Shown: piece after piece, positions 1,271 to 37,809 of the stretch
Layout: every line of letters begins with the position of its first letter
Position numbering within the stretch: the first letter of the stretch is position 1
Source of the DNA: Candidatus Omnitrophota bacterium
GTDB lineage: Bacteria > Omnitrophota > Gorgyraeia > Tantalellales > Tantalellaceae
Length of the DNA: 64,000 nucleotides
Reading direction: 5' to 3'
Assembly: GCA_015231405.1 (NCBI GenBank)
Contig: JADGBR010000001.1
Coordinates: 155,964-219,963 of the forward strand
Position numbers and translations under genes: made by a program
The notes under the pieces: generated by a model
Seen by the model: the letters and a program-made list of their open reading frames with translations, nothing else
Told to the model about the DNA's origin: nothing
Database searches by the model: none

Positions 1271-1984
1271 TGGAACTATTGCATATAGAGGAAGCATCTT
1301 ACGAGAAGATAAATCACGTAACACTCTCGCCAACGTGAATCCTATCACCTGTTTCGCCCCCTTTGCTAATAACTCTTTCGAACAGGTTTCGATCGTGGCT
1401 CCCGTGGTTATTACATCGTCGGTAAGGAGGACTGTACGGCCGTAAATTTGTTCGCTTGAGGTTACAGTGAACGAGCCCCGGAGGTTCTTAACTCTTTTTT
1501 CGCGCGAGAGTCCCATTTGTGAGGAGGTGTTGACCGTTTTTCTGAGGATGTCAGTGAGTAACGGTTTGCCCAGCGTCCGGGATAGACCATAGGCTAATAT
1601 TGCGCTTTGATTATAGCCTCGCGACCTGAACCTTTCCCGTGAGATAGGCACCGGAACGAGTAAATCGACGCCGTCTAAGATGGACGGATACAGGGCGATG
1701 AACCTTTCAATTATCCACAAAAACTCGCTCATCATATCCCTGCATTTTTTATATTTAAAAAGATGGAGGCATTTCATAATGATCCCGTTGTATTCAACGC
1801 AGGATATAACGTTATCCACGTAGCCGCCTAAACGAGGCGAAAGGAGTTGCTGCCCGGAAAGTTCTTTATGACATCCTGAACATATCGGCATAGGTCCGTT
1901 CCTATTTTCTTTTTTGCACAAAGGACATTTGGGGGGTAGCAAGAGTTTGCTAATATCCGCTAGGAGGGGGATAATATTTAACAT
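1244..1984 (-). CDS. comF: ComF-family protein (phosphoribosyltransferase-like, ComFC)
   Basis: N-terminal C-x2-C...C-x2-C zinc finger (CPLCKK...CSGCHKEL). C-terminal PRTase motif LLTDDVITTGATIE. Confidence 0.7.
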   Translation of the reverse strand: MLNIIPLLADISKLLLPPKCPLCKKENRNGPMPICSGCHKELSGQQLLSPRLGGYVDNVISCVEYNGIIMKCLHLFKYKKCRDMMSEFLWIIERFIALYPSILDGVDLLVPVPISRERFRSRGYNQSAILAYGLSRTLGKPLLTDILRKTVNTSSQMGLSREKRVKNLRGSFTVTSSEQIYGRTVLLTDDVITTGATIETCSKELLAKGAKQVIGFTLARVLRDLSSRKMLPLYAIVPLLQLQLFS

Positions 1985-2064
1985 ATTAATATAGACACAT
2001 TATTGGATCAAAATGTTTCAAAAAATCTTGATTTTAATGTTAGTTCCGTTAAAATACCTAAGTA

Positions 2065-2472
2065 ATGAATAAGGAAAACAAAAGAGATATTTCTATATTA
2101 TTCCTGCGGATCATGTTAGGATCTATTTTTTTCGCGCATGGAGCGCAGAAATTGTTTGGCATGTTCGGAGGTATCGGGATCGAAGGAACGACGCGGATGA
2201 TGGAGGGGCTGGGGTTTTACGCACCTGAAACCTGCGCTGTTGTATGGTCATTTATCGAGTTTTTCGGCGGGATATTTCTCGCTTTCGGGGTCTTGGCCAG
2301 ATATGCCGCCCTTTTACTATCGTTCATTATGGCAATAAGTATATTAAAAATTAATGCCTCTTACGGATTCTTTATTCAGAACGGAGGGTATGAATACAAT
2401 TTGCTGATAATTGTCTCTTGTTTGCCCGTCATTCTACTTGGTGGCGGTAAGTGGTCGTTGTGGGACGTGTAG
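2065..2472 (+). CDS. DoxX-family membrane protein
   Basis: ILFLRIMLGSIFFAHGAQKLFG motif typical of DoxX. 135 aa, about 4 TM helices. Confidence 0.7.
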   Translation: MNKENKRDISILFLRIMLGSIFFAHGAQKLFGMFGGIGIEGTTRMMEGLGFYAPETCAVVWSFIEFFGGIFLAFGVLARYAALLLSFIMAISILKINASYGFFIQNGGYEYNLLIIVSCLPVILLGGGKWSLWDV

Positions 2473-12954: not shown

Positions 12955-12955
12955 A

Positions 12956-13078: not shown

Positions 13079-13144
13079 TTTTAAATTCAACAATGTAATC
13101 ATATCTATTTGACAAGTAAATTTACTTGTTATATACTTGTATTA

Positions 13145-13312: not shown

Positions 13313-13313
13313 A

Positions 13314-13483: not shown

Positions 13484-13513
13484 ATAACCCAGGTCAAAAT
13501 AAAAGGAGGAGAA

Positions 13514-13774: not shown

Positions 13775-13895
13775 CATTATAGCGGGAAGTTCAGGATATA
13801 TCCCGGCAACAAATTCATTCTCTCCGTAAATCCTTCCAATTATTTAAGAACTATGATAATATTTCGAAAAGCATTTCGTATCCTTTTGAAGCCCT

Positions 13896-14420
13896 TTGAG
13901 CGCTTACAATCCAATGAATATTTTGATAATAGACGGATATAATGCAATTTACGCTATAGCCCCGGCGAGGGAAAAGCTCCGGGTAGGACTTAAGCAGGCG
14001 CGTGATTATATTTTGTCTCTATGCGGGGAATTTGTTCGCTCAAGCGGTTTTATAGATGATTTCAGGGTTGTTTTTGACGGTGATGACAGATACAGGGACA
14101 TCGAAAAGCTGATAGGACGCCTTTCCGAAAAGACAGTTTTTTCCCGTAAAGGCGAAGGCGATAATAAGATAATCCATATGATCCGGGAATGTTCAGGGAA
14201 AAATAAAGTTATAGTGGCGTCAAACGATAATTATGTCAGGAATAACGCGAGGGCATACGGCGCTAAATTAATAGACCCACGGGATATGCTCAAGGTTGCA
14301 AAGGGTGACCATATTTCTTGTGATGGATGTGAAAAGACGTTTGACAGGAACCTCATGGCCAGGATAACCAAAGAGTATATCAAGGAATTAAATGACCATA
14401 ATAATGGAAAAGAAGGATAA
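13896..14420 (+). CDS. YacP-like NYN/PIN-domain RNA-binding protein
   Basis: ILIIDGYNAIY motif and D-rich core typical of NYN_YacP. The true start may be Met 13914. Confidence 0.6.
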   Translation: MSAYNPMNILIIDGYNAIYAIAPAREKLRVGLKQARDYILSLCGEFVRSSGFIDDFRVVFDGDDRYRDIEKLIGRLSEKTVFSRKGEGDNKIIHMIRECSGKNKVIVASNDNYVRNNARAYGAKLIDPRDMLKVAKGDHISCDGCEKTFDRNLMARITKEYIKELNDHNNGKEG

Positions 14421-23205: not shown

Positions 23206-23221
23206 TGCGCGCCTTGCCCCG

Positions 23222-23446
23222 ATCCCGTTCTCCTCTTACTTGGCATGATCCCGGTGTACTATTATGGGCCTTATCCCTCTCGCTTTTTCGACAGGTGAAG
23301 GGTCCGAGTCCTGGCGCCCTCTCGGTATGACAATGCTCGGTGGTTTGTCATTTTCGACGCATATAACGCTACTTTATGTGCCGAATATGTATTCTATATT
23401 CGAAGGACTTGGAAAAAGGAACAAAGGAGGAGGCCGATATCAATAA
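23222..23446 (+). pseudogene. remnant of the C-terminus of an RND (AcrB-family) efflux transporter
   Basis: GLIPLAFSTGEGSESWRPLGMTMLGGLSFSTHITLLYVPNMYSIFE matches the last TM/C-terminal consensus of AcrB-type pumps (GliPLa.stGaGse.rrplG....gGl..st.LTL..vP..Y). Only about 60 aa, frame-broken upstream. No pump body. Confidence 0.5.
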
Positions 23447-23447
23447 A

Positions 23448-23603
23448 ATGGTGATGATAACCTACTATGAGGGGCTGGACTCGGATGTGATGGAGCTTCT
23501 TAATAGGACGGGACTTGCCAATTACACTAATATGACAGGAAATTACGGCCGTGGCGATTGGTCAGGTACTCATCTAGGTGACGATATATGGCCGGGTGAT
23601 TAA
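23448..23603 (+). CDS. small hypothetical ORF (51 aa) upstream of the giant gene
   Basis: AGGAGGAGG about 14 nt upstream of ATG 23448. No homology recognised. Confidence 0.2.
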   Translation: MVMITYYEGLDSDVMELLNRTGLANYTNMTGNYGRGDWSGTHLGDDIWPGD

Positions 23604-23842
23604 TAATGTATTGTACGTTTCCTGCCCTCTGGATCAAGCAGTAAAATTATTGTCCGGTGATCAGGACACTTCGAAAAACTTTTGCCGCTGACGGTATTAA
23701 AGCCTTCATGATGCCGGTTGATGATATAACCTGAACGGTTCTTCAGCCATCATAGTTAGCCACATAAAAAGTTGCAAAAGAGATTTTATTCAGCCATAGT
23801 TAAGGTAATAAACAGATTAAAAATATTAACTACCATCTTACT

Positions 23843-26800
23843 ATGAAAAAATTCAACACGCTAATATTGTTGATTTCTTTTACCATCAATCAGATGGTGA
23901 TCCCCGTAAAAGCGGACGTCGCAAAGCTGATAGATCCCGGTACTTTCTACATACCCGGAAAGATCGGTGAAATAATGACTTTGGTCAAAGGGAATTCAGG
24001 AAAGACCATAATTAATATAACTGACGCGCACTGCAATTATTCTGCCCAGGACAATATCTGCAAGATACTTCAATATTTGACATCAAACGAAACCCCTGAG
24101 ATCGTCTTTCTTGAGGGGGGATCGGGCAAATATGATTTCAGCGTTTTCGATAAAATTAATGACACAGAAATTAAAGAGAGGATCGTCGAAATATTACTTA
24201 AAGAAGGAAGGCTCTCGGGCGCGGAGAAATATGGTATAGGATCCAATAACAGCATAAGGCTCGAGGGGCTTGAAGAAAAGGATCTTTATGACAAAAATCT
24301 CGGGTATTACAGAGGATCCCTGACAATGAAGGATACAGTCCAGCCTTATCTGGATAAATTAAGAGGGATCCTCGCGAAAATCAAAAAGAACCTGTATTCC
24401 GAAGAGATGATCAAGATCGATGATATGTTCGACAGGTATGAGTCAGGGGAACTTAACATAAAAGACCTTATTGTTTTGATCTCAGGTCTTTTGGCGCAAA
24501 AGAGCGCGGATCTCCTGGCGTATAAGAACATAGTCGGCCTCGCTGGGATAGTGAACGATGAGAAGAGGATTGATTTCGAAAGGGCAGAGAAAGAGATGGA
24601 AAATGTGATGGACCTTTTGACCAAAACACTTCCAGGGAACGAGAGAACAAAACTCCTTGAGCAGCTGACGGGATTTAAGGACGGCGATATCGATAAGGAA
24701 ATGTTTTACGGATATCTTTTTAAACAGCTCCGGCTGTCTTCGGCTGACATGTCCAATTACGAGAACCTAAGGAAATATTCGGAATATATATCAGGGTATG
24801 AAAACATCGATAAAGGCGAGCTTGCCAGAGAGATCCGAAGAGCCCGTACTGACCTTTTTGAAAAGTCATTTACTGGAGACGATCAGAAAGAATTATTCGC
24901 GCTAGTGAATTATCTGGTCGCCGTCGATAAGCTCATTAACGCAAAGCTCGTTAAGGAAGAATTCAATGATTATATAAAAATGGCATCAAGAGTTGACCTT
25001 GACGGGGTCAAAGCGTTCATAGCCAAAAACTATCCCATTGACGGGGATCATCTTAATATGAGCGAAGCCCAAAATGAATACCCAATGATCGTGGATCTGA
25101 TGGAAAAATTTTACAAATGCTCTTTTGAAAGGGATGTTGTATTCCTCGGCAAGATCGACAAGTATATGACCGTTAATAAAATGAAGAGCGCGGTCATGGT
25201 TACCGGAGGTTTTCATAAAGATAATCTGAAAGGCCTGTTCGAAAAAGCGGGTTTTAATTACATAGAAGTGATGCCGGTAATTAAAAAGACCGATGTGGCG
25301 AATAATTATTTTAAACTGCTTTCAGGTGAACGGTCCGATCTCGAGGGATTCATTGATACTGCCGTGTCACTCCTTCCCGGGAATTCATTCCTGGCTTTAA
25401 GGAGCGTTTTCTCCGAGATGGGGATATCCGACATAAAGGCAGGGAACGAAACTGTCCTTAAGATCGCGATGCTTGAAAAACTCCTGAACGGTGAGGAGTT
25501 CACGATAAGGACGAAGCAAGGCTGGTGGATAGTGATTTCGCCCGAAGGAGTGAAAAGCGTTAACGCAAACGTATTTAAGAGCGATACCGGAACGATAGGG
25601 GGCCAAAAGATCACCGCGGAAGTATTCAGGCCCGAAGCCAGATTCGACGCAAATGTCAGCGAGGCGGATATCGTTCTTGTGGACGGGGACGAGCTCAATC
25701 ATATTCAGCAGGAGTTGTGGATAGACGGGCTAGGAAAGGAAATGGGGTATAAGGCATTGAGAGATGTCATCGACACGGAGCCATTTATCGACAAGCTTTA
25801 TGAATTCGGCCTTGAAGAGCAGCATGTCGAATATCTTAAGCTGAATTATATTAATACCGATAAGCTAAGGGTGTGGAACGATAAGGACATGCGTATGCCT
25901 GTCGACGGTCATCCCGGAGCGGAGGGCGTTGTCTATTTGACAAGCCATCTTTTCAACGCGAATGACACCAGAGGAGCCGTACTCGCTTTCCTTCACGAAC
26001 TTGGAGGGGCTTATAAGAACGGCGAATTGAAGCGTACCCATGCAGATAATAGACAGCTTGACGACGCTTACGCCTCCGGTGACAGGGACCTCATAAAAAA
26101 GAAGGCTATTGAAATAGTCGAATTCGCTTCCGGCGGGACAGGCATGGCTCGTGGTGAAAAAAGGGATTATGCCGATAAAGTCGATATGGAGGCGGCGAAG
26201 CCGGTAACGATAGAGGACTTTGAGACCCTGACGAGCGATCACCAGAAAGAAAATGTCATAAGGGAGCTGAAAACCATACACGCTGAAATCATGTCGATGG
26301 CCGAGGAATACAAAGAGAGAACGGGTGATCCTAAATACCTGACGATAACGATGAGGGAACAGAAACGGTTCCTTAAAACATTTGAAAGCGTTTATTATAA
26401 ACGCATAAAAGAAACCGGAGACGAAAGTCTTTCGTACGCACATGCGCTTAATACGGCTAAACAGGGCTACTACGATATTTTTCCTGAAAGTTTCGTTCGA
26501 GAGGAGATCGGGGACGTTAATGTACATGACGCCCCGTTGCCTGAAGAACTGGACGCCTTGCATTCCGAGGTCTACCGAAAGCTGTCGAGGGCCATAGACA
26601 CCGATTTTCCGTCGCTTTTCAACTGTCCGGTAGACACTCTTGGAGAGCTGGACGACGCGCTCGATATCTATGTCAGGAACCACAGCGGGATAGGCAAGGT
26701 CGAAAAGGTCGTGTGCACGCCGGATACCGACAGCACGCAGTTGATAGGTTGCCTTCTGCCCGTCGATCCGAAAGACAGGAAGGGAGCGGAAAAGGTGCGG

Positions 26801-29800
26801 TTTGAGATGGGGGTTATTTACCGGATGGTGGAACATGCCAGAGACGATCCGGAACATACGCATATATTAAGATTGGACCAACTGGAGGCTTTATCCCCCA
26901 AAGTATGGGTCATATTGAACCAGTTCCTGTTAACGGACGAAATGACGGTGCCTGAAGCCGACCCGACCAAAGGAAAAGCCGTAAGGAAACTGAAACGGCC
27001 GAAAAATCTGAAGATCATAACGTCTATAAATAAGGGTCTGGATGACAGCGCGTTCTATGACAGGTTTTTAAGAAAGACCATTGACTCCCCGAGCGATGAG
27101 GTGCTGGGGGCATATATAATGAGCCATTATGGTCTTCCGGAATGGGCCGCGAAAGATATGGTCAGCCTGAAAAACAATAATGAAGCGGTAAATAACGGTC
27201 AGTTGTTCATTATCCTGGATTATATCAAAGGCAGGCTGTCGGAATCTGAAAGTAAAGGTGAAAAGGCCTTGAAGGATATCATTGACCAGGAAGTCGGCCT
27301 TTATTTAGGGAACCTTAAACCGCTTAAGCCGGGGGACGGATATGAGACCAAAGTCGAATTCAAGGACGATAAGCTCATGTTTGACGGCGTCGAGCTCGCA
27401 ATTAATGACGGGCTTAGAGCTAAGATAAAACAGGCGGTAAAAAGCCAGGACGACATCGAAGCCATTAAAAAAGCCATAAAAGAAACTGTCTCTATCAGCA
27501 TGACGAGGGACGTGGCGAGGGCCTTGAGCGCTATCGCGAGGAATTACCGCTATGGGAATAAGGTTATCCAGCTCGAGGGCCCTACCGGGTCCGGAAAGAC
27601 CTTCCTCGCGGAATCATTGGCTAAAATGCTGAATATCCCGTTTTATGGGGAACCTTTCCATGCCTCCAGTAAGCAGACAAAGCTTCTTGGGTCTTTTGTC
27701 CCGGATCCGACAGGGGAGTTCTACCTTGATACGGACACGCAGTTCCTCCGGCATATACAAGACGGTGGGGTAATAGCCTTATCCGAACTTAACGCCTGCG
27801 AAAAGGACGGGTACGCGCGATTCGGCTGGTTGATGGTCCCGTTCGCTAGCGGTGAAGATACGCTCGAACTAAACCAGTATCCTTTACCCGGAGAGGGCGG
27901 GGAAATGTTCAGGTCGGTAAAAAGGCATAAGGATTCGATGATCATCATAGACACCAACCCTTCGGACGCTTATAAGTCCAGAGCGGCCCTCCCGCCGATG
28001 CTGAACGCCTATACCCCGAAAGTATGGGTGGAGGGAAAGTATACCATGGAGGAGCTTAAAGAGATATCAGCCGACTTCATCGAAAGTAAAGAGGTAAGCG
28101 GCGATGAAAAGGGTTTCTTTACGGATGTCCTTTCCGAACTCCATTTTAAGGTCCAGGAGGAGCTCGAGAGAACAGATCCGAAGTTATCCAGAGGCCGTGA
28201 GCATATAGTAACGATGAGGGAGCTTACGCGTACGAGTAAAATGATAAGGAGCGAAAATAAGAATAAAGATAAAGGCCAGAACTATTATGACGCGGCCATG
28301 CTTTATTACGGATCGGCGTTCAAGAATGAGGCCGATAGAGAGCTGGTAAAGGGTTATATTAAAGAAATATTATCCGGGCAAGGTATAGCTGTTTCCTGCC
28401 TTAAAGAGAGGGATGACAATTATTTTCTTAGAACGTCGATCCTTAACACTAAAAACTCGACAATGCTCTCGCTTCCGGCGATGGATAACCCCTTTGATGT
28501 AATACAGGAAGCGCTCGGTGAAGAAAAGAATGTCGAGGTCGAAAAGTATAACGCCAATTATTTTACCGACGATTTCGGTCTTTTAGGAGGTTATGTGCCT
28601 AATGAAGGGAGCAAATATAACGAGGAAATGGCCTTCCGCATGGTCGACGGTATCATACTGAAGAACATAAAAAAAGCGTTGAAAGAAAAGGATAAGACTT
28701 TTATCCTGGCTTTCGAGAATTTCCATTATCTGAGGCCCAAGATGGCGGTAGCGCTTAATTCAATACTCCAGGACAGGGTATATTATTCGATAGCTAAAGA
28801 AGGCGGCGTGAAAACAAAAGAAAGGATAGAAATACCCGACAACCTGAAGTTCGTCTCCACCGCTTCTAACGAGGTCGAGTTCCAGATGTCTCTGGCGGAA
28901 CAGTCCAGGTGGGTAAGGATATTCGGTTCCGGAGATAAGTCCAGGGCTCCGCCCGAAGAAAGACAAGCGAAAGTATACGCCGACGCCGATGAATTAAGAA
29001 AAGCTTACAAAAAAGATCGTTCTCAGCTAGACCCGAATATACATCCGGAGCCGGTCACTGACGGGAAAGGGCTTCTCGTCCCGACCAAAGAAATGATGGA
29101 AGCTGAAAGCCGGATGGTTGATGCGATGGACGATGATAAAGTCATTCTCCTGGAAGGCCCCCCTGGAGGCGGAAAAACGGAATACGCTTTGGATATAGCG
29201 AACAGGCTTGGCCTAAAATCCTATCTGTATTCGGCCCACGCGAATTCCCATCTCAGGGACCTTATCGGCAGTTATGTGCAGGATAAGGACGGGAAATATG
29301 TTCTTACGGCCCGTGAAAAAGACGGCCATTTTATGGCTCCGTTCCTTGAATGTCTTAAGAACGGCGGTGTGTTCATTATAGACGAGGGCGCTATAGGAGT
29401 TAACGCCCAGGCCATTATTAGCTGGCTTACGGGTATTGCAAGAGGCGATAAAGAGATAGCCATAAACGAACATCTCGGAATGGATGAGCCGTTAAGGATC
29501 AAAAGGCATGAGAACTTTCATCTTGTCATCACCACAAATCCCGTCGAAGAAACCCCTGACAGGATGAAAATACCCATAGAGGTCCTTGAACGTTCGGAAC
29601 GCATTTGGGTGACGGATGACATTTGCAGGAAATCATATGATAGTATCACGGAATTCTTTTACGATCTTTACGCCGGAAATGACCCGAAAATGGCGGAGCA
29701 TAAGAAGAACTATACCGTTGCCGCTCTTTCAAGCCTCCATATAAAGATGAAAGAAATACTTTCCGCGCAGGGGTTCGTTAATGACCCGGACAGGCATCTT

Positions 29801-32800
29801 ATGACATTGCGCGACCTTAAGGCCTTGATCGCCGCTTTCAGTTATTATGTAAAGGCCGGAATGGATAGTAAACCCGCATTCAACGCCGCCTTTGAGCTTG
29901 TGTATCTGGCTCAATTCAGTGACTTGGTCAAAATCCAGATACTAAAGAAGCTTGAAGAAGTATTGGATGGCAACGCGAAAGACAGGATAGACTTCAATGC
30001 CGGACGCTTCGAGGACAAGCCGATGGATATGGCTGGCATGATAAAGAGAGGCCCAATGGCCCAGTCCGAACAAAAAGTTATAAAACAGATAAAAGACCTG
30101 ATCGGGATAAATAAAAATCCGCTTCTTCTACTCGAACCGGGATCAAGGGAAAAAGAGATCATATCCGCTTTTTCCGAAAAAGAAGGATATGAGCTATTCC
30201 ACTGCGATAGCCACCCGGAGATGACCAGTTTGGACCTTATCGGAGGCACGTTCCCGTTCTTTGAGGAAAAGGGCATGGAGGCGGAAAGGTTAAGTGAATT
30301 GCCTGGTTTTATCGGGAGGCATCTTGTCCGGAAAGAAGATATAGATAAACCGGGTGAAAAAAAGCTTCTTGTTATACACAATATTGACGCCCTTCATGAA
30401 AAAGTCAGGACAGTCCTAAATAATTTTCTGCTTAAAGGTTCCATCGATATCCAGGATCAAATGGGAAGGACCAGGACGATGTATCTGCCGAAAAATGTCA
30501 GGATAATGGCGGCCTGCTCGGAAAAGACGGGTGAGGAAATATCCGGGGCGTTCTGGAACAGGTTCCAGAAAATAGATGTGCCGCCGATAAGTTATATGGA
30601 GAACGGTAATTCGGAGCTGCTCGAGCTCCTTTTGTATGATTCGGGCCTGTCGGAATACGGCGCGATGGGGGAAATGGTATCCAGATATATCCAGTATCTG
30701 CACTCTTTCACTGACCGGTTGGACGCGGAGAGCGAGTGGCCTTCGGGGAAAAAGTACGCATTCACGGTAAAAGAGGCTTTGCTTCTCGGGAAATACGTGA
30801 AGATAGCGATAGACGACGCGAAAAAAGACCCAGAGGAAATAGACGTAGCTAAGGCGAAAGAGATGGTCATCAGGGAAGCTTATAACCTGTACGGGGGTAA
30901 GATAAAAGAACATCAAAGCGACCTGGATTTCTTCGAGCAGAACGTTCTTAAGATCATATTCGATCACAGGCTGGTAAAGAATTTATCGGGTACTGTCGTG
31001 AAGGAAAAAGGCGTCGTTACGGAACTGGCCGGGGTTAAATTGCCGCACGGGACAAAAGGTAAAAGGCTTGAGGATATAGATCCCGAATACAGGCTTATTC
31101 TCGTAAAAGAAATAGTCAATACGATGGCTGGCATCGTCAGGGCCTGGAGATCCGGGAAAGTGGTCTCCATGACCGGTGAAACGGGAACCGCGAAAACCAC
31201 GATGGGGGTTTTTCTTTCTCAGCTTATGTTCGGGGAAGAGGCCGGAGAGGACAGCTACTACATATTTTCGACCCACGGCGCGTCGAAAGCAAGAGACCTT
31301 GAATATCAGCTGAGGATGACCGAGGAAGGCAAGTACCGGCTGGAAATACAGGAATTCATTAAGAAGATAGAGGAAGGGAATAAGGTCATCATAATCGACG
31401 AGGCGAACATGAGGCCGGAGATGCTCTGGGCAATTAACGCCATAGCGAGGGGCGAGAAGGAGATAACGCTTCAGATCCCGGGCGAAAAACAATACAAGGT
31501 AAGGGTAGGCGACAACGTCAATATCATAATGACTATGAACCCCACAAGCTATAAAGACAGGAAAGATGTTCCCGGGATACTTAAGGAGAATGTCGTGAAC
31601 CTGTGGTCCAGCCTCAATTACTCGGAAGCCGAGATGGACATGATACTTAAGGGGATGATGGGAGCGATGGAGCGAAAACTGCTGGGTAAGAAAGGGAAAG
31701 TGTCACAGGAAGCGGAAACAAGCGAGGAGGATAAGGCAATCCCGGCAAAAGACGGCGTTTTTGAGGATTTCAGGGGGTCGATCGATCTTGAGAAATTCCT
31801 GGAAAGGGTATACGAGTTCGGACATGACGAGGCTCTCGAAAAAACGCCGCAGGAAGTGATCTCAAATTTGGAAAAAGAACTGCTTGAAAGAGATGACGTC
31901 AAGAAGCGCATGGCGAGGATCGAAACGACGGTCAAGAACCTTACACGGGGCATATCTGTCGAATATTCAACATATTATCCGTGGGGGCAGTCGAACGAGG
32001 CTGGGAAGTTACTTATTCCTCTCGATCAGCTGGTCAATCCTCTTCTTACGGACGACATGATAATCTCCTTCATAATGCACGAAATAAGGCATTGGAGATA
32101 TTCGCCGACCCCTAAAGATATTATGGGGGATATCGCGGAGGATCTTGTGAAAACTATCCCTAAAGCGAGGGAGATCCTGTCTTCGAGCGATTTTAATTAT
32201 TATTGGAATGTCCTTGAAGATCACAGGATAAACGCGGTGCGAACTCGTTTTGACGGCGAGAATTCATATATAGATACCTTTATAGGAACGAACTTTACTG
32301 ATCCCGAACAATCTCTAAAAATACAGGAAAAGCTGGAGACTTTCATAGATGGAGGAGAATACATAAGGGCTTTCTGGGAATATATACTATACTACGGATA
32401 TGCGCGGGAACATACACCCGGATTTCCAAGGTATCCGAAGGCCTTAAGGGACGCGATCAATAAAATAACGGACGGCGGGGATAATTCGGTCTTGTACAGA
32501 GCGGTATTGTCGGGCGATGTCCATCCGGACTACGATGCGCTGGTAATTGATAAGAACGCCCCTGAGAACAGGGCGAAGATGATAAAAGCCGCCATTAACA
32601 GTTTGAAGGTCATAATAGGCGAAATACATCCGGTATTTCTTGAAGTCGTTGAATATGAAAGAAAAGAGCGGGAGAAAAAGCATAAAGACAAGGATAAAGG
32701 CGAAAAAACGAAAAAAGAGGCGAAAGCACCGAAAGAAGCTAAAGAAGCGAAACAACGGCCCATAGAGGATCTTTCCGAAGGACCTCTTACCCAGGCTCCT

Positions 32801-35800
32801 TTAAGCCCGCCGCCGGGTGCGATGCCAAATAATGATAAGGGTGTTGAGACGCCCGTTGATATGCCTAAGCCCTGGGATGAAAGGCCACAAACGGATATAC
32901 CGTTAACAGGCACCTCCGGTTCCGGAGCTTCCGATGAGAAAGGCCGGGGGGAACAAGGTGAAAGTGCTCCGGGTGACGATATGTCAGGGGAAGAATATCC
33001 TTCGGGAATGGATAAGGGAGCCGGACCGGTGATGCCAGGTTCTGATGCTTTTTCCGGAAAAACCATTAACTATGATCCCGTACAATGGAAAGAGATGACT
33101 AAAGAGGAGCTCGAGAGATTGATAGAGAAAAGTAAAAGGATAAGAGGTGCTACGGAGTTACCGGAGGAATCATCTAATGATTTTCTGGCCGAGATAAGGA
33201 GGATAGTCGAAAATCCGCCTGAAACACCTCATGAGTTTGAAGGGTACAGGAAATTCTACAGGGAATTTGTAGAACAGGTTAAATATTCGCACAATATGGC
33301 TATTACGGATGAATTATTCGAATACTATGGGCATCTCATTAAAAACGCCAAGACACTCCGGGATGTTATCGACCGGCTGCCGGAAGAGATCAAAAAGCTG
33401 ATGGACGAAACACGGGAACTGTTCGAGGAGATCGAGGAGGACATCGAGCAGGAAAACAGCGAAACGGGTATGCAAATCGATATTGAGGCGAAATGGAGCA
33501 GAAAAAAAGAACAATTCATAGAAAATATTATAAAGGATAGGAAAAGATCGGATATAGCTGTAGGGGTTACGCTCGTCCCTGATATGTGGGCGAGCGGGGC
33601 ATATGAAGAGATACTTGCCGTGTTCCTTCAGACTTTCAATAAGCTGGAGAGAAGGAAGGTCGAGTACAGCGTGAGTTTTAGCGATGTCTCATATTCTTTG
33701 CGGGAAGGCATAGCGTTCAACGAAAAGGTAAAGAAAATGGAACAGCTCGAGCAAAGGTACAGAGAAATGCTTCTGTACTTGGCTTTGACCAATCACGGTA
33801 ATAATCAACAGTCTTCAAAGGTGGGTATCGGTAGATTCACGCCGCTTAAGCTGGTCCTAAGCATAATGCAGAAATATTCCGGAGTTAAAAAAACGAATAA
33901 GATCGAGTTTATCGTTACGGATGGGTCGATCGAGGAAACGTCCTGTTATATGTTCTTCCCGTCGGAAACCGGGAAAGGGTATCTGGGGAGCGACGATATC
34001 TTTCTAAGACCGAGCGGCGTTATCGGCCCGTATTACGATATGCCGGGTTGTACCAAAGACCTGGTAATGGAAGCGACAGAGGCGCTCAATTATCTGGCGA
34101 ATTATGAGCATAATTTAAGGATATGGAAGGCGTGCATACAAAGGGCGAAAGATGGCGGCATGACAGACGCGGAATTAAAAAGAAAAGGGCTGACCGAAGA
34201 TGAGTTCCCGGGATTGCACGTACTTAAAAATGATCCGGACCCAAGAAGCATGGGAGCTCGATTGGCGAAGGAATATGGCTTCAGATTCGACCAATGGGGT
34301 TATAACTGGCCCAGCGTGACGGAAAAAGTGAGCATGAGTGACAGGATAAAGGCCATAATAAGAGCCAGCGACCTTGTCACGCGCCTAAGAATGAAAGCCG
34401 GTATAATATTGCCGGCATCCGAGGAATATCTTGAAAGAGCGAGACAGGCTCCGGGCGGGGATAAGGCTAAATTCGGTATGCCTGTTCCGACCCGGAAATT
34501 AGCCGACGCTTTAAGTGACGCGAAGTCGAAAGGGATAGATATTATAGGGGTGGGAACTAAAAAGGAATACAAGGGAGTTCAGCTATTCGATTCATGGATC
34601 TATATCGACGGATATTCACCGCATGTGGTCACTTTCCTCATGCTGGAGCTGTCCAACTATAAAAAGAAACACCCGGGAGATTTTCCGAAAGGTGATCTTT
34701 TTGAGAACTTGCCGGGGTTAAGGGAAAAAGCCGATAAAATGCAAAAAGAGACGGCCAGTGCCGCTAAGATGCCCGGCATGAAAGCTCCCTCGGAAAATAG
34801 CATAGAAATGAACCTTCTTGATCTTGAGAATAACTCTGCGCCGGTACAGCATGAGGAAATACTGATCAAACGAAAGATCGAATTAGGAGGCGACGGGCGC
34901 GAGTTAAAAGTCGCATTCAGGGTGCTTGACGAAAATGTCGCTGACAAAGTCAAGAGTGTAGCTATGAGCCCGAGCAAGGCTTTCTTCGATATTGGCGGAG
35001 ATACCTTTTTTGCCGTGAGGAGAGAAATGCCGGACGGTTCCATAAATATATTTCTGACTAAAAAGTCGATGGCCAGGCTTATCGTCGACGAAAAGGCTCT
35101 CATGGCCCTTGCTATGCACGAAGTTTACGATACCGGCGAGAAGGAAGGGCCCGGTTCGCATAAATGGGCGTGGGATAAAGTCAAAAAGGAGAACCCCGAA
35201 GGTATGAGCTCTCTCCTTAGATTCATGATCGACAATATGGATGAGGCCCAAGTTAAAGCTCTTGCATCCGAATATGAAGAAGACCTTTCGGGAAGAAAAG
35301 CGTCGGGAGAGTGGGGGCCATTCGAGGAAGATATTCACTCATATTGCCTGGGAAGGCTCGATGCGATCAGGACTTCAACGGAAACGGATAAAAATTCGAT
35401 ACTTAAATATGAATTATCAGGAACATCGGAAGGCCGCCTGGAAAAAATAAGGTGTGAGTCCGGCATTGCTCCTGAAACGAATTCAACGGAGAAGGCGAGA
35501 TCCGAGATGCTGGACGTTTACGGTAAACTCCTGTCCGGAGTTTACAAGAATACGCATAATAAGGAGAAATGTTATGATTTCATATTGAGCGCTGTCCCCA
35601 CGGCAAAGGACGATGAAGGGCAACCGGTCGATTACGCCGAAAGCGTCCTATCAGGGCTCATGGGTAAATTAAGGAGCCAGGGAGACGCCGCGGTAGCAAA
35701 AGCTCAGATAGGGAATATAACGTCCAGGTATACGATGGGAGCTTTAGCGGCAAAGAGCATGGTCGAGAGTATTGTCGAGCTTTCAAAAAGCGTTCCCGAT

Positions 35801-36277
35801 GGGAGGATACACTGTTCGATCAGCGCAAAAATACTTAAGGAGCTCGAAGAGCTGAACGCAGGTGAACAATTCATTGTAGGAACTGTAAAAGACTTTTTGA
35901 CGGGACATGTGATGCTCGACATTATAACCGATACCGCTACGACGGAGAAGGAAGAGACCGTATACCCGCTTTCCTTCGCCAAGTGCAAGGCATTAGGCCT
36001 CGCCAGGTTCAACATGGCGCATGTGGGGGCGATGGTGGATAAGAACGACGACCTGTATAAAAGTTCATTAAGGCTTGTAGGCCTCGCGATCGCGTATTTG
36101 ACCAATAACACGGACAACGCGGATAATATCGTCAAATCGCTGGAGGAGGCTTCGGGAAAAGATAAAGAATTCTATAAAAGGGTTTTCGAGCTTGTGCTGC
36201 CCGAAGTGGCTAAAATAAACATAAACGAGATTAACAATATATTTCAGGCCGAAGCGGAGGTATTCGCGTCTCTCTAA
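23843..36277 (+). CDS. giant midasin-like AAA+ protein (4144 aa): signal/anchor peptide, TraB/GumN-like domain, six tandem AAA_5 modules (alternating degenerate/intact), helical HExxH region, acidic/Pro-rich disordered linker, VWA-like segment, ~700 aa unknown
   Basis: Single uninterrupted ORF. Signal-like N-terminus MKKFNTLILLISFTINQMVIPVKA. TraB/GumN motifs (IINITDAHCN about aa 57; MVTGGFHKDNLKGLFEKAGFNYIEV about aa 452). Walker A boxes GPTGSGKT (nt 27578), GPPGGGKT (nt 29168), GETGTAKT (nt 31175), each with an hhhhDE Walker B and a TNP/MNP sensor-1 (AAA_5 hallmark). Three interleaved AAA-like modules lacking Walker A (about nt 26700, 28500, 30120). HEIRH at nt 32078. K/E- then P/G/D/E-rich low-complexity at 32660-33070. 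FIVTDGSIEE (VWA TDG motif) at nt 33907. Confidence 0.85.
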   Translation: MKKFNTLILLISFTINQMVIPVKADVAKLIDPGTFYIPGKIGEIMTLVKGNSGKTIINITDAHCNYSAQDNICKILQYLTSNETPEIVFLEGGSGKYDFSVFDKINDTEIKERIVEILLKEGRLSGAEKYGIGSNNSIRLEGLEEKDLYDKNLGYYRGSLTMKDTVQPYLDKLRGILAKIKKNLYSEEMIKIDDMFDRYESGELNIKDLIVLISGLLAQKSADLLAYKNIVGLAGIVNDEKRIDFERAEKEMENVMDLLTKTLPGNERTKLLEQLTGFKDGDIDKEMFYGYLFKQLRLSSADMSNYENLRKYSEYISGYENIDKGELAREIRRARTDLFEKSFTGDDQKELFALVNYLVAVDKLINAKLVKEEFNDYIKMASRVDLDGVKAFIAKNYPIDGDHLNMSEAQNEYPMIVDLMEKFYKCSFERDVVFLGKIDKYMTVNKMKSAVMVTGGFHKDNLKGLFEKAGFNYIEVMPVIKKTDVANNYFKLLSGERSDLEGFIDTAVSLLPGNSFLALRSVFSEMGISDIKAGNETVLKIAMLEKLLNGEEFTIRTKQGWWIVISPEGVKSVNANVFKSDTGTIGGQKITAEVFRPEARFDANVSEADIVLVDGDELNHIQQELWIDGLGKEMGYKALRDVIDTEPFIDKLYEFGLEEQHVEYLKLNYINTDKLRVWNDKDMRMPVDGHPGAEGVVYLTSHLFNANDTRGAVLAFLHELGGAYKNGELKRTHADNRQLDDAYASGDRDLIKKKAIEIVEFASGGTGMARGEKRDYADKVDMEAAKPVTIEDFETLTSDHQKENVIRELKTIHAEIMSMAEEYKERTGDPKYLTITMREQKRFLKTFESVYYKRIKETGDESLSYAHALNTAKQGYYDIFPESFVREEIGDVNVHDAPLPEELDALHSEVYRKLSRAIDTDFPSLFNCPVDTLGELDDALDIYVRNHSGIGKVEKVVCTPDTDSTQLIGCLLPVDPKDRKGAEKVRFEMGVIYRMVEHARDDPEHTHILRLDQLEALSPKVWVILNQFLLTDEMTVPEADPTKGKAVRKLKRPKNLKIITSINKGLDDSAFYDRFLRKTIDSPSDEVLGAYIMSHYGLPEWAAKDMVSLKNNNEAVNNGQLFIILDYIKGRLSESESKGEKALKDIIDQEVGLYLGNLKPLKPGDGYETKVEFKDDKLMFDGVELAINDGLRAKIKQAVKSQDDIEAIKKAIKETVSISMTRDVARALSAIARNYRYGNKVIQLEGPTGSGKTFLAESLAKMLNIPFYGEPFHASSKQTKLLGSFVPDPTGEFYLDTDTQFLRHIQDGGVIALSELNACEKDGYARFGWLMVPFASGEDTLELNQYPLPGEGGEMFRSVKRHKDSMIIIDTNPSDAYKSRAALPPMLNAYTPKVWVEGKYTMEELKEISADFIESKEVSGDEKGFFTDVLSELHFKVQEELERTDPKLSRGREHIVTMRELTRTSKMIRSENKNKDKGQNYYDAAMLYYGSAFKNEADRELVKGYIKEILSGQGIAVSCLKERDDNYFLRTSILNTKNSTMLSLPAMDNPFDVIQEALGEEKNVEVEKYNANYFTDDFGLLGGYVPNEGSKYNEEMAFRMVDGIILKNIKKALKEKDKTFILAFENFHYLRPKMAVALNSILQDRVYYSIAKEGGVKTKERIEIPDNLKFVSTASNEVEFQMSLAEQSRWVRIFGSGDKSRAPPEERQAKVYADADELRKAYKKDRSQLDPNIHPEPVTDGKGLLVPTKEMMEAESRMVDAMDDDKVILLEGPPGGGKTEYALDIANRLGLKSYLYSAHANSHLRDLIGSYVQDKDGKYVLTAREKDGHFMAPFLECLKNGGVFIIDEGAIGVNAQAIISWLTGIARGDKEIAINEHLGMDEPLRIKRHENFHLVITTNPVEETPDRMKIPIEVLERSERIWVTDDICRKSYDSITEFFYDLYAGNDPKMAEHKKNYTVAALSSLHIKMKEILSAQGFVNDPDRHLMTLRDLKALIAAFSYYVKAGMDSKPAFNAAFELVYLAQFSDLVKIQILKKLEEVLDGNAKDRIDFNAGRFEDKPMDMAGMIKRGPMAQSEQKVIKQIKDLIGINKNPLLLLEPGSREKEIISAFSEKEGYELFHCDSHPEMTSLDLIGGTFPFFEEKGMEAERLSELPGFIGRHLVRKEDIDKPGEKKLLVIHNIDALHEKVRTVLNNFLLKGSIDIQDQMGRTRTMYLPKNVRIMAACSEKTGEEISGAFWNRFQKIDVPPISYMENGNSELLELLLYDSGLSEYGAMGEMVSRYIQYLHSFTDRLDAESEWPSGKKYAFTVKEALLLGKYVKIAIDDAKKDPEEIDVAKAKEMVIREAYNLYGGKIKEHQSDLDFFEQNVLKIIFDHRLVKNLSGTVVKEKGVVTELAGVKLPHGTKGKRLEDIDPEYRLILVKEIVNTMAGIVRAWRSGKVVSMTGETGTAKTTMGVFLSQLMFGEEAGEDSYYIFSTHGASKARDLEYQLRMTEEGKYRLEIQEFIKKIEEGNKVIIIDEANMRPEMLWAINAIARGEKEITLQIPGEKQYKVRVGDNVNIIMTMNPTSYKDRKDVPGILKENVVNLWSSLNYSEAEMDMILKGMMGAMERKLLGKKGKVSQEAETSEEDKAIPAKDGVFEDFRGSIDLEKFLERVYEFGHDEALEKTPQEVISNLEKELLERDDVKKRMARIETTVKNLTRGISVEYSTYYPWGQSNEAGKLLIPLDQLVNPLLTDDMIISFIMHEIRHWRYSPTPKDIMGDIAEDLVKTIPKAREILSSSDFNYYWNVLEDHRINAVRTRFDGENSYIDTFIGTNFTDPEQSLKIQEKLETFIDGGEYIRAFWEYILYYGYAREHTPGFPRYPKALRDAINKITDGGDNSVLYRAVLSGDVHPDYDALVIDKNAPENRAKMIKAAINSLKVIIGEIHPVFLEVVEYERKEREKKHKDKDKGEKTKKEAKAPKEAKEAKQRPIEDLSEGPLTQAPLSPPPGAMPNNDKGVETPVDMPKPWDERPQTDIPLTGTSGSGASDEKGRGEQGESAPGDDMSGEEYPSGMDKGAGPVMPGSDAFSGKTINYDPVQWKEMTKEELERLIEKSKRIRGATELPEESSNDFLAEIRRIVENPPETPHEFEGYRKFYREFVEQVKYSHNMAITDELFEYYGHLIKNAKTLRDVIDRLPEEIKKLMDETRELFEEIEEDIEQENSETGMQIDIEAKWSRKKEQFIENIIKDRKRSDIAVGVTLVPDMWASGAYEEILAVFLQTFNKLERRKVEYSVSFSDVSYSLREGIAFNEKVKKMEQLEQRYREMLLYLALTNHGNNQQSSKVGIGRFTPLKLVLSIMQKYSGVKKTNKIEFIVTDGSIEETSCYMFFPSETGKGYLGSDDIFLRPSGVIGPYYDMPGCTKDLVMEATEALNYLANYEHNLRIWKACIQRAKDGGMTDAELKRKGLTEDEFPGLHVLKNDPDPRSMGARLAKEYGFRFDQWGYNWPSVTEKVSMSDRIKAIIRASDLVTRLRMKAGIILPASEEYLERARQAPGGDKAKFGMPVPTRKLADALSDAKSKGIDIIGVGTKKEYKGVQLFDSWIYIDGYSPHVVTFLMLELSNYKKKHPGDFPKGDLFENLPGLREKADKMQKETASAAKMPGMKAPSENSIEMNLLDLENNSAPVQHEEILIKRKIELGGDGRELKVAFRVLDENVADKVKSVAMSPSKAFFDIGGDTFFAVRREMPDGSINIFLTKKSMARLIVDEKALMALAMHEVYDTGEKEGPGSHKWAWDKVKKENPEGMSSLLRFMIDNMDEAQVKALASEYEEDLSGRKASGEWGPFEEDIHSYCLGRLDAIRTSTETDKNSILKYELSGTSEGRLEKIRCESGIAPETNSTEKARSEMLDVYGKLLSGVYKNTHNKEKCYDFILSAVPTAKDDEGQPVDYAESVLSGLMGKLRSQGDAAVAKAQIGNITSRYTMGALAAKSMVESIVELSKSVPDGRIHCSISAKILKELEELNAGEQFIVGTVKDFLTGHVMLDIITDTATTEKEETVYPLSFAKCKALGLARFNMAHVGAMVDKNDDLYKSSLRLVGLAIAYLTNNTDNADNIVKSLEEASGKDKEFYKRVFELVLPEVAKININEINNIFQAEAEVFASL

Positions 36278-37809
36278 CCCCAGAGGTTGCGGTCCAGGCA
36301 CCTGTATCCTATCGCTTCGGAAACGTTATGCGTGTTGATGACCTCCGAGCCTTCCATGTCGGCTATCGTTCGTGATAATTTCAGTATCTTGTCGTAAGCC
36401 CTGGCCGAAAGACCCATTTCAAGTATTACCGTTTTCAGGATATATTCCGCTTCTTTTGAGAGAACCGAGTGCTTGTCGAGCTCTTTCGGTGACATGTAAG
36501 CGTTGATAGCGAGGTGGCAGCTTTTTTCCGCGAACCGCTCTCGTTGTATAGCCCTCGCCTTAAGCACTCTTTGTTTAACTCGTGAAGTCGTTTCGCCCGA
36601 GCGTTTTCCTGAAAGTTGTTCGTAGTTGAGCCTTGGGACTTCCAGGTGTATATCAATGCGGTCAAGTAATGGGCCGGATATTTTAGACAGATATTTCTGT
36701 ATCTGTCCGGGATTACACCTGCACTCCTTTTTCGGGTCAGTTAGGTTCCCGCACGGGCAGGGGTTCATAGCGGCAATTAGTATGAACCTGGAGGGGTATT
36801 TGATCGAGCGTTCGGCCCGTGATATGGAGATCTCGCCTGATTCAAGGGGTTGTCTTAGCGTTTCGATGACGTCGCGCCTGTATTCCGGAAATTCGTCAAG
36901 GAATAGGACTCCGTTGTGGGCGAGGCTTATCTCCCCGGGGCGTGTATGAACCCCTCCTCCGGCCATGGCGGCATAAGAGATCGTGTGATGCGGGGCCCTA
37001 AAGGGGCGTTCGTCGACGAGGTCCTCATTCTTGAGTTCGCCCGCGATACTGTATATCTTCGTCGTTTCAAGCGACTCTTCATATGAGAGGTCCGGAAGCA
37101 GATAAGGGAACCTTTTCGCTAGCATGCTTTTACCAGAACCCGGCGGGCCAATTAAAAGGATGTTGTGGTTGCCCGAGGCGGCAATCTCAAGCCCTCTTTT
37201 TACGTGTTCCTGTCCTTTAACGTCTGAAAGGTCCCACAAATCTGACGGATTCTTCAGGGATGATATATTTTGGCGGGGTTTGACGGGTTCCATCGGTTCC
37301 GCGCCTGTCACATGCCTGATTATCTCATCAAGGGAACGGGCGCCGAAGATGATCATCCCATCGACATGTGAAGCTTCCCGGGAGTTAGAGACCGGCAGAA
37401 TAAAAGTAGGGAACCGGTTTTTTAGGGATATTGCCAGCGGAAGAGCGCCTTTAAAGGAACAAAGTTTACCCGTGAGCGACAGTTCCCCGCAAAAAAGGAT
37501 GTTATCCATTAGAGTCCCGTCGATCTGTTCCGAAGCGGCCAGTATTCCCAGAGCTATTGGGAGATCGAAACCGGAGCCTTCTTTTTTCATTCCTGCAGGA
37601 GCAAGATTGATAGTTATTTTTTTAGCCGGAAAAGAAAAACCCGAATTTCTGATAGCGGATCTTATCCTGGCGCGGCTTTCCTTAATAGAGCTGTCAGGGA
37701 GCCCAATTATTGAAAAGGAGGGAAGCCCCGAAGCCGTTACATCCGTTTCGACTGTTACCTGCTGTGATTCCATTCCTATCATGCAACCCGAATTGACTTT
37801 AGATATCAT
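36274..37809 (-). CDS. comM: Mg-chelatase-like AAA+ ATPase ComM/YifB family
   Basis: N-terminal Lon-protease-like/ChlI domain (GLPDSSIKESRARIRSAI, GSGFDLPIALGILAAS). AAA+ with Walker A GPPGSGKS. C-terminal Mg_chelatase_C. Convergent 4-bp overlap with the giant gene. Confidence 0.85.
   Translation of the reverse strand: MISKVNSGCMIGMESQQVTVETDVTASGLPSFSIIGLPDSSIKESRARIRSAIRNSGFSFPAKKITINLAPAGMKKEGSGFDLPIALGILAASEQIDGTLMDNILFCGELSLTGKLCSFKGALPLAISLKNRFPTFILPVSNSREASHVDGMIIFGARSLDEIIRHVTGAEPMEPVKPRQNISSLKNPSDLWDLSDVKGQEHVKRGLEIAASGNHNILLIGPPGSGKSMLAKRFPYLLPDLSYEESLETTKIYSIAGELKNEDLVDERPFRAPHHTISYAAMAGGGVHTRPGEISLAHNGVLFLDEFPEYRRDVIETLRQPLESGEISISRAERSIKYPSRFILIAAMNPCPCGNLTDPKKECRCNPGQIQKYLSKISGPLLDRIDIHLEVPRLNYEQLSGKRSGETTSRVKQRVLKARAIQRERFAEKSCHLAINAYMSPKELDKHSVLSKEAEYILKTVILEMGLSARAYDKILKLSRTIADMEGSEVINTHNVSEAIGYRCLDRNLWG

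Follow-up and report, generated by a model that had tools for sequence, protein, structure and literature searches.

An export-type leader and a TIKI-like domain at the N-terminus of a midasin-like AAA+ giant from Omnitrophota

We analyzed a 64,000-nucleotide stretch of a Candidatus Omnitrophota bacterium (contig JADGBR010000001.1, positions 155,964 to 219,963 of the forward strand), which is called the window hereafter and in whose coordinates all positions are given. The window contains an uninterrupted open reading frame (ORF) for an AAA+ giant, and an identical protein is present in a public collection (P0008). The N-terminus of the giant, as translated from the ORF, reads MKKFNTLILLISFTINQMVIPVKA/DVAK, where the slash marks a cleavage-like site. 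Behind it lies a conserved domain with catalytic-type residues, whose conservation was assessed in an alignment of 143 family sequences. The features of this N-terminal part, together with the whole gene, are as follows (aa, amino acids; pLDDT, predicted local distance difference test score).

23843..36277, + strand: the whole giant gene, an uninterrupted 4,144 codons, encoding the AAA+ giant of 4,144 aa.
23843..23914, + strand: signal-peptide-type leader, aa 1-24, with the n-region MKK, the uncharged stretch F4-V22 (19 residues) and the end V-K-A/D.
23915..23953, + strand: variable linker, aa 25-37, with a pLDDT of ~35 and a mean column conservation of 0.31, the lowest of all segments.
23954..25342, + strand: conserved N-domain, aa 38-500, an α/β core (38-145 and 445-500) split by a helical lid of ~300 aa (146-444).
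24023..24031, + strand: D61-A62-H63, an acid-x-His motif at the end of strand 55-61, invariant in 143/143; compare E3900-x-H3902 of RRSP.
24113..24115, + strand: E91, at the end of strand 87-90, invariant in 143/143 and 28 residues past H63 (this spacing in 141/143).
25130..25132, + strand: R430, a basic residue, invariant in 143/143 and 28 residues ahead of H458.
25205..25216, + strand: G455-G-F-H458, the second motif, GxxH, after strand 449-455; it is invariant and is the site of sub-threshold PF04187 alignments.

The first-pass annotation had described the N-terminus of the giant as signal-peptide-like, and the sequence was found as quoted there. In a Kyte-Doolittle scan, the 19-aa window starting at residue 4 ranked at the top of ~4,126 windows and was alone above 1.6, while the runner-up windows reached at most 1.43 and lay inside folded helices. 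Thus, the giant has exactly one membrane-type segment, and it is located at the extreme N-terminus, where the hydrophobic maximum would land by chance with a probability of ~0.1%. In rule-based checks, the leader agreed with a Sec-type cleavable signal peptide, for which the rules were a basic n-region, an h-region (~7-15 residues, within an uncharged stretch of less than ~22) and small residues at -3 and -1. In the AlphaFold2 (AF2) model, residues 2-17 formed an isolated helix that was not packed on the domain, and residues 18-41 were disordered. A comparable N-terminus was found in none of the same-window PGI, Lon-like protease, ClpB, ClpC, LigA, aminoacyl-tRNA synthetase, PolX and ChlI-like ATPase.

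The start codon was also inspected. An in-frame stop is located 13 codons 5' of the ATG at 23843 with no ATG, GTG or TTG in between, so this ATG is the first start following the stop. Further in-frame ATGs occur only at codon 18, within the hydrophobic core, and at codon 45. No Shine-Dalgarno sequence was found ahead of the ATG at 23843. The GC content of the 12.4-kb ORF was uniform (0.465, compared with 0.467 across the window). A mis-called start had been offered as one way out of the localization problem. Because the leader is kept at the protein level across the family described below, it must be translated, and a mis-called start is excluded.

Relatives of the leader and N-domain, together called the cassette here, were collected with an HMMER profile search over 1.84 billion cluster representatives. 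The search returned 9,939 clusters at E <= 1e-3 and 6,824 at E <= 1e-30, and a word-indexed search returned six relatives of ~500-800 aa. Wherever a source of these proteins was named, it was Omnitrophota. A hydrophobic segment was present directly 5' of the domain in 144 of the top 150 members, and the six exceptions appear 5'-truncated. Loss of this segment from orthologues, which had been named beforehand as the observation that would tell against it, was thus not what the family showed. The n-region carried a net charge of at least +1 in 98.6% of the family leaders (median +3), and in 88% the 15 residues following the segment carried no net positive charge. The uncharged stretch had a median of 20 residues (interquartile range 18-21), and 83% of the leaders ended in small-x-small.

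The alignment gave the consensus K-x-[IV]-S-hhhh-x-[SAT]-F-h-[FL]-[SY]-N-[IV]-[AS]-[FW]-A for the leader, in which Phe13 was conserved in 93%, Ala at the -1-like position in 86% and small residues at -3 in 77%. The mean column conservation was 0.45 in the leader, 0.31 in the linker and 0.63-0.67 in the domain core. Such unusual conservation may indicate that the leader is kept as a membrane helix or serves as a special element for recognition. The giant retains K3, T6 (S/T in the family), F13 and N16/Q17 of the family motif; it has Pro21 (23903-23905) where the family has its terminal Ala (120/143), and the V-K-A follows three residues on.

Other N-terminal sorting signals were considered as well, the curated ones being Tat (twin-arginine translocation), prepilin, YSIRK, KxYKxGKxW and ESPR. 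Ten family leader peptides had zero matches in NCBIfam at E <= 10, and the twin-arginine consensus and the lipobox Cys were absent from the family leaders. Signals of the Tat, lipoprotein, prepilin and YSIRK types were ruled out. A subgroup of the family (P0007, P0022, P0053, P0087, P0108, P0113, P0141 and others) has a longer and different conserved leader, …RKGPxKVIxxITLWSFLF…AWA, with charged residues between the hydrophobic core and AWA, which makes it less like a canonical cleavage region. In domain sequence, this subgroup is the nearest to the giant.

Behind the leader, the first-pass annotation had proposed a domain with motifs of the TraB/GumN/erythromycin-esterase type. An AF2 model of residues 1-520, built from a 7-sequence alignment, had a mean pLDDT of 82.6 and a predicted TM-score of 0.71. 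The model contained seven strands (42-48, 55-61, 87-90, 94-96, 139-143, 449-455 and 472-478) alternating with helices, and an all-helical insert of ~300 residues (146-444). A folded domain is therefore real, but its limits had been drawn too short, since the fold runs from ~42 to 500 and past 25290 (aa 483). All of the motifs quoted earlier were found, that is, T60-D-A-H63, LE91GG, G455-G-F-H458 and GFNYIEV (469-475). Each catalytic-type residue was at the C-terminal end of a predicted strand, and the spacing from R430 to H458 was maintained in 124 of the 143 members. C64, N65 and Q69 were likewise invariant, giving the signature DAHCNYxAQ. The giant departs from the family at two near-invariant sites, with T60 for Q (141/143; 24020-24022) and K437 for N (139/143; 25151-25153).

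The fold of the TIKI superfamily has a central and mostly parallel β-sheet, often with a helical lobe appended or inserted. This arrangement of residues resembles that of the superfamily, which is defined by a β-sheet core with helices on its flanks, by a 2His/2Glu site and by one basic residue that is conserved (PMC6254334). The site of RRSP comprises E3900-x-H3902, E3930, H4030 and R4001, with R4001 29 residues ahead of H4030; the corresponding pair in Bcr135 is H85/E113, and the His-to-Glu spacing is 28, likewise for H3902/E3930 of RRSP (PMC6254334). The same order was found in E. coli YbaP (H41, E67, R228 and H252, with R228 24 residues ahead of H252). The N-domain thus carries the 2His/2acid constellation, with Asp in place of the first Glu, and R430 is the conserved basic residue. 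Compared with the superfamily (Tiki, EreA/B/C, Bcr135/136, ChaN, TraB/PrgY/GumN, MARTX RRSP, PMT C1/C2 and HopBA1), it resembles the members in its predicted α/β core with a helical lid and shares the acid-x-His after a strand, the Glu 28 residues on, the conserved Arg and the late GxxH, and members of the superfamily also occur within giant secreted toxins (PMC6254334). Unlike these proteins, the cassette domain has no significant profile or fold match, has the Asp and the ~300-aa helical insert, and bears the DAHCNYxAQ signature (Cys64, Asn65 and Gln69 invariant), which has not been described for the superfamily. It is also obligatorily N-terminal, right after the signal peptide, and heads multi-thousand-residue proteins.

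Similarity searches with the N-domain returned little. Neither Pfam nor NCBIfam has a family model for this region, and no significant profile match to any TIKI member family was obtained. PF01963 (TraB) matched neither the giant nor 58 family members, even at E <= 10. Alignment of the family profiles to E. coli YbaP with hhalign gave probabilities of 0.1% (7 sequences) and 1% (143 sequences). Because hhalign was negative with both profiles, membership in TraB/GumN was rejected, and TraB/GumN proper (PF01963) was ruled out. What stood of the earlier proposal is the TIKI/Ere/ChaN/TraB constellation, which was invariant in 143/143. PF04187 (ChaN, 'Tiki superfamily') aligned below the cutoff in 6 of 50 members (best E = 0.01, 16.2 bits compared with a cutoff of 27.7). 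A search of the N-domain profile against PDB sequences gave just spurious EF-hand-like matches in the helical lid, and sub-threshold matches to PAH_ZNF598 and DUF1722 in the lid were regarded as helical-repeat noise. Foldseek against the PDB returned nothing at E <= 0.001; the highest probability was that of EreC 6xcs_A (0.54, E = 0.31, TM-scores 0.21/0.26), and the Ere-like 2rad was also listed at E ~1. A tblastn search for a second copy of the N-domain within the window was negative. From the residue pattern, we consider that the N-domain is probably a new and highly divergent family of the TIKI superfamily. Many members of this superfamily are extracytoplasmic, such as the Tiki ectodomain, the ChaN lipoprotein and PrgY. 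Toxins and effectors among the members include RRSP, PMT and HopBA1 (PMC6254334).

Across a very large family, proteins share the leader and the TIKI-like domain as their N-terminal head, and the domain began within residues 1-30 in most of the 150 best members. The 155 collected family proteins had a median of 2,250 aa; 125 had at least 1,000 aa and 41 at least 3,000 aa, with most lengths between 1,000 and 5,500 aa, and 12 were stand-alone heads (<=600 aa). A scan of one genome per GTDB species revealed at least 559 loci, with several copies per genome. According to the record titles of the best 80 of these loci, 54 belonged to Omnitrophota, Omnitrophica or named Omnitrophota candidate genera and 26 to 'uncultured Planctomycetia'. 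The cassette of the giant has diverged, its identity to the other family members not exceeding 38%, and none of the other 149 top members has its AAA body.

The bodies carried by other members were examined with Pfam scans of 14 long and 50 shorter proteins. PGM/PMM was found in 8 of the 14 long members, and CofD and radical SAM (S-adenosylmethionine) domains were also seen. The other body domains included transaldolase, FBPase, PRK, B12-binding, UDP-glucose pyrophosphorylase, epimerases/dehydratases, GNAT, amidotransferase, GHMP kinase and HATPase_c, and no adhesin-type domain was found in these scans. When 254,538 body residues were scanned, 118 of 134 members had no additional transmembrane (TM)-like segment. 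The paradox pointed out in the first-pass annotation, an export-type leader on a cytoplasm-type body, is therefore not confined to the giant and recurs across the family with PGM/PMM, radical SAM, CofD, transaldolase, FBPase and nucleotide-sugar enzymes.

Stand-alone head genes were located immediately 5' of proteins with PFK, PPDK, PGK, FBP aldolase, FBPase (FBPase_3), TIM and iPGM domains. In these arrays, each enzyme protein started with a signal-like N-terminus, and no hydrophobic segment was seen elsewhere in it. Since the stand-alone head and each large array protein bear their own leaders, the leader is required per polypeptide, as for a targeting signal. Three such same-strand arrays, in which the stand-alone heads lie with large proteins of 700-3,400 aa, are L001:9466-21226, L003:70-11632 and L005:896-10103. 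The L001 array is flanked by PilZ genes, with an 11,572-aa ORF upstream.

Behind the N-domain, the remaining part of the giant is composed of the following regions.

25343..26245, + strand: mid region, aa 501-801, common to P0007, P0138, P0152 and P0022 and missing from L088.
26246..32647, + strand: body conserved with L088, L089 and P0156, with six AAA_5-type modules and then the HEIRH domain (aa 2746).
32660..33127, + strand: low-complexity linker, aa ~2940-3095, K/E-rich and then P/G/S/D/E-rich by composition.
33410..34942, + strand: vWA-like region, aa 3190-3700, recognized by alignment to L088/L089 with their canonical DVSGS.

The six AAA_5-type modules (~931-2650; Pfam AAA_5 E = 2.6e-31 over 4 stretches, plus two degenerate modules) alternate between degenerate and intact. 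Their order is a degenerate module (~931-1200), one with Walker A at 1246, a degenerate module (~1560-1700), one with Walker A at 1772 and Walker B at 1843, a degenerate module (~2094-2183) and one with a Walker A-like motif at 2445 and Walker B at 2515. The midasin lid, AAA_lid_7, gave a weak match. Several AAA_5 modules and a vWA domain, the latter by alignment, are thus combined in one chain, as in a midasin-like or fused MoxR-vWA ATPase. The metal ion-dependent adhesion site (MIDAS) of the giant reads D-M-W-A-S (aa 3247-3251; within 33563-33598), TDG is kept (aa 3359-3361; within 33908-33928) and is followed by an insertion of ~175 aa, and Pfam gave zero matches on this vWA-like region itself. 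This suggests a degenerate metal site. Zincin-like 'HE' sites were found at 25994-26008 (HELGG, aa 718-722), 32078-32092 (HEIRH, aa 2746) and 35117-35131 (HEVYD, aa 3759); only HEIRH is a complete HExxH, and HELGG is degenerate. The family member P0002 has a HELGH motif in its own post-domain extension.

Homologues of the AAA body were sought among 5.8 billion proteins and by metagenome scans, and the body proved extremely rare. The protein search yielded a single fragment, P0156, from an Omnitrophota metagenome-assembled genome, with 42% identity over aa 940-1996 and all Walker motifs conserved. With Walker A and B retained at this overall identity, the ATPase motifs are under constraint, and the ATPase is predicted to be functional. 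A first metagenome scan with the alignment of aa 940-1996 found no relatives, and a second one found a single full-length homologue, L088 (3,942 aa; L088:2149-13977), together with its truncated near-copy L089. The alignment of L088 with the giant begins at aa 802 of the latter, with 35-39% identity, and L088 has neither a TIKI-like domain nor a hydrophobic segment (maximum Kyte-Doolittle value 1.21). Its vWA region (12916-13974) has a canonical DVSGS…TDG MIDAS (PF00092 E = 8.6e-5, 23.3 bits compared with a cutoff of 23.8). Aa 501-801 of the giant are common only to cassette-family proteins, whereas aa 802-930 are already homologous to L088. Since aa 501-801 are shared solely with cassette proteins, the gene is an in-frame fusion, at ~aa 802, of an Omnitrophota head of ~800 residues to a MoxR-vWA/midasin-like machine.

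Two further observations concern L088. WD40 β-propellers are inserted at aa ~980-1170 and ~2190-2620, beside the AAA_5 modules and the vWA, and L088 represents in a single chain the MoxR-vWA-β-propeller theme mentioned in Pfam PF20030. An ORF upstream of it (1362..2099) encodes a classical signal peptide, MKSLRKLTVLIVLIAFIGTVAGPAPAMA/DD, and stops 49 nt ahead of the 3,942-aa AAA giant, whose frame is open for 25 codons 5' of its ATG and overlaps the end of the signal-peptide ORF at an A5 run (CAAAAAG). Two separate genes could explain this arrangement, as could a +1 frameshift or a sequencing error, and the upstream ORF and the giant may together make a single gene whose signal-bearing head is a different one.

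According to the above results, the conflict over localization is real and family-wide, because the leader and the domain point to export while the bodies need cytoplasmic cofactors. At face value, export is indicated since a leader of the type recognized by Sec and type I signal peptidase precedes a domain of a superfamily with extracytoplasmic and secreted-toxin members. The leader is unique in the protein and N-terminal, is retained in 144 of the 150 members, and shows an N-in/C-out charge distribution. The first-pass annotation had suggested that an N-in anchor could hold the body in the cytoplasm. This is topologically impossible, because with a single hydrophobic segment an N-in orientation places the body outside, and no second TM-like segment returns the chain.

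We give about an even chance to the best-supported explanation, namely that the protein undergoes Sec-dependent export and that its ATPase acts in an ATP-containing destination, most plausibly another cell. The effector-like export offered by the first-pass annotation is possible. In this process, the leader would direct each polypeptide to the Sec translocon while the N-terminus stays in the cytoplasm, and the chain would be threaded outward, with the leader probably cleaved. Export and cleavage follow from sequence rules and are predicted as such. We infer further that the TIKI-like head would serve all cargoes alike as a hydrolytic, processing or docking module, with a function comparable to that of the TPS domain in exoproteins of two-partner secretion or of the trafficking heads in polymorphic toxins, and that the ATPase ring would work where ATP exists beyond the cytoplasm of the producer, most plausibly inside an attached host or prey cell and less plausibly in a nucleotide-containing periplasm or coat.

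Several observations speak against Sec-dependent export to such a destination. ATP, SAM, NAD(P) and iron-sulfur (Fe-S) assembly are not known to occur outside the cytoplasm. Because Sec exports unfolded chains, radical-SAM and AAA+ bodies fit poorly with export, except if their site of action is another cell. No secretion-system genes adjoin the giant within the window. The leader exceeds the adjacent linker in conservation and has a near-invariant Phe and polar Q/S/N residues, which is atypical for generic signal peptides, and the leader of the giant departs from the family at the cleavage-like position (Pro21, where the family has Ala). In its domain, the deviations Q60T and N437K occur, with the five catalytic-type residues intact. 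The statistics for a TIKI fold are weak (Foldseek E >= 0.06 with TM-scores of 0.2-0.26, Pfam below the cutoff and hhalign to YbaP negative), and the fusion of the cassette to the AAA body is known from one sequence only.

An alternative that we consider possible, though rather unlikely, is a membrane tether with a cytoplasmic body. The N-terminus would then stay uncleaved as an N-out, monotopic or partner-bound helix, the chain would not be translocated, and ATP, SAM and Fe-S cofactors would be available. It agrees with the finding that every identified body domain is a cytoplasm-type enzyme and that the ATPase motifs are constrained, and the conserved leader motif (F13 in 93%, S6, and N/S at 16-17) suggests a specific helix-helix contact over a generic export signal. 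In addition, West-Roberts et al. doubt extracellular calls for glycolytic domains. However, the charges are strongly N-in/C-out (n-region >= +1 in 98.6% and C-flank <= 0 in 88%), the conserved small-x-Ala end resembles a peptidase site, the uncharged stretch, with a median of 20 residues when the c-region is counted, is short for spanning the membrane stably, and no second TM segment returns the chain to the inside. Most TIKI-type domains are also extracytoplasmic.

The leader-bearing set might instead act in the periplasm or coat of its own cell as an energized extracytoplasmic compartment, where PGK and PPDK would make ATP for the AAA+ ring, which we regard as improbable. The same-strand arrays of leader-bearing PFK, FBP aldolase, TIM, PGK, iPGM, PPDK and FBPase proteins beside stand-alone heads fit this explanation, as does the ordinary leaderless PGI in the window, which leaves room for the leader-bearing enzymes to be distinct from the housekeeping ones. 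Seymour et al. (PMC10066038) also pass on an earlier proposal of a giant Omnitrophota protein as an extracellular coat. But such a compartment is wholly inferential, and GAPDH and enolase were not seen among the sampled domains. ATP-dependent metabolism in the bacterial periplasm has no known precedent, and Fe-S and radical-SAM domains cannot mature after Sec export. Very improbable, finally, is an artefact of annotation or assembly, in which the start would be further downstream or the cassette and the AAA body mis-joined, so that the giant would pose no paradox. The single occurrence of the fusion of the cassette to the AAA ring (P0156 is a fragment beginning at aa 940), the L088 homologue without a cassette and the missing Shine-Dalgarno sequence are in its favor. 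Yet the leader is conserved at the protein level across the family, no other start codon lies between the in-frame stop and the ATG at 23843, the 12.4-kb ORF is continuous, and its GC content is uniform. The homology of aa 802-930 to L088 and of aa 501-801 to cassette proteins is that expected of a real in-frame fusion, and the same kind of fusion to other enzyme bodies is present in most listed family members.

Returning to export, we propose tentatively a broader form of it, which is unlikely on present grounds. The leader and the TIKI-like head would be the address label of a phylum-wide Omnitrophota system that moves ATP- or cofactor-dependent enzyme arrays out of the cytoplasm, with a dedicated machinery recognizing the leader motif and the TIKI-like domain serving as a processing or docking enzyme. 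The destinations would be an attached host or prey cell or an energized extracytoplasmic space. Sugar-phosphate, nucleotide-sugar and radical-SAM enzymes would be among the cargoes, to which the giant would add an AAA+ ring of the dynein/midasin type with a vWA domain. Omnitrophota are uncultured, ultra-small and probably predatory or parasitic bacteria with many very large proteins.

Similar architectures are found in known systems. TpsA exoproteins (FhaB and CdiA) and the trafficking heads of polymorphic toxins start with a Sec signal, which is followed by a conserved domain of a few hundred residues and then by a very long body that varies. TpsA proteins occur as many paralogues per genome, and Sec can handle chains of 3,000-5,000 residues. 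The cassette family is like them in the logic of its architecture and in the many paralogues per genome. However, the cassette head is α/β hydrolase-like with catalytic-type residues rather than a β-helical TPS domain, no TpsB-like partner was seen, and behind the head come soluble metabolic enzymes or an AAA+ ring in place of β-helical filaments that end in C-terminal toxins. Like midasin (Rea1/Mdn1) and fused MoxR-vWA proteins, the giant strings six AAA_5-type modules together in a single chain, in which intact and degenerate Walker motifs alternate, and it also has a weak match to AAA_lid_7, an acidic low-complexity linker and a C-terminal vWA/MIDAS-type domain. Unlike midasin, it is bacterial, with a signal peptide, a TIKI-like head, an inserted HExxH domain and a degenerate MIDAS (DMWAS), and no sequence similarity to midasin was detectable beyond the AAA_5 modules.

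Long Omnitrophota proteins with metabolic domains have been given signal-peptide or TM predictions in two preprints, both of which note the general conflict, with one doubting the predictions and the other accepting them (10.1101/2023.11.21.568195; 10.64898/2026.06.07.730766). The giants described in this phylum ('Archaeovorins' and others; 10.1101/2023.11.21.568195, 10.64898/2026.06.07.730766, PMC10066038) resemble the present one in their signal or TM predictions together with glycolytic, PGM/PMM, radical-SAM and AAA_5 domains, and they raise the same question of localization. Unlike it, they have tens of TM helices, compared with one leader and no other TM segment here, and those described by West-Roberts et al. 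exceed 30,000 aa, compared with 4,144 aa. The papers on these giants describe N-terminal regions without identifiable domains and mention neither the cassette nor a TIKI-like head. The general puzzle, the TIKI-like fold and midasin-like AAA rings are already known, whereas the leader and TIKI-like cassette heading ~10^4 Omnitrophota protein clusters, and its fusion to a six-module AAA+ ring, appear to be undescribed.

The cassette, with ~500 residues, a motif-bearing leader and invariant catalytic-type residues, is a concrete and testable handle on the localization puzzle, and it heads ~10^4 protein clusters without a Pfam or NCBIfam model. If export is true, a whole class of ATP-dependent enzymes would act outside the producing cytoplasm, including a single-chain six-module AAA+ ring. 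If there is no export, the leaders would be a new kind of membrane tether, and signal-peptide predictors would systematically mislocalize a large share of the proteome of the phylum.

For the surroundings of the giant gene, a spacer of 637 nt (23206-23842) separates it from an upstream gene for a response-regulator/PAS/HD-domain protein. A scan of this spacer for promoters and terminators gave nothing above chance, and an Rfam scan of the entire window gave zero matches. Downstream, the convergent neighbor (36274-37809, - strand) is a gene for an AAA+ protein like ChlI of Mg-chelatase, with the Pfam domains Mg_chelatase, ChlI and Mg_chelatase_C, and its stop region overlaps the stop codon of the giant by 4 nt.

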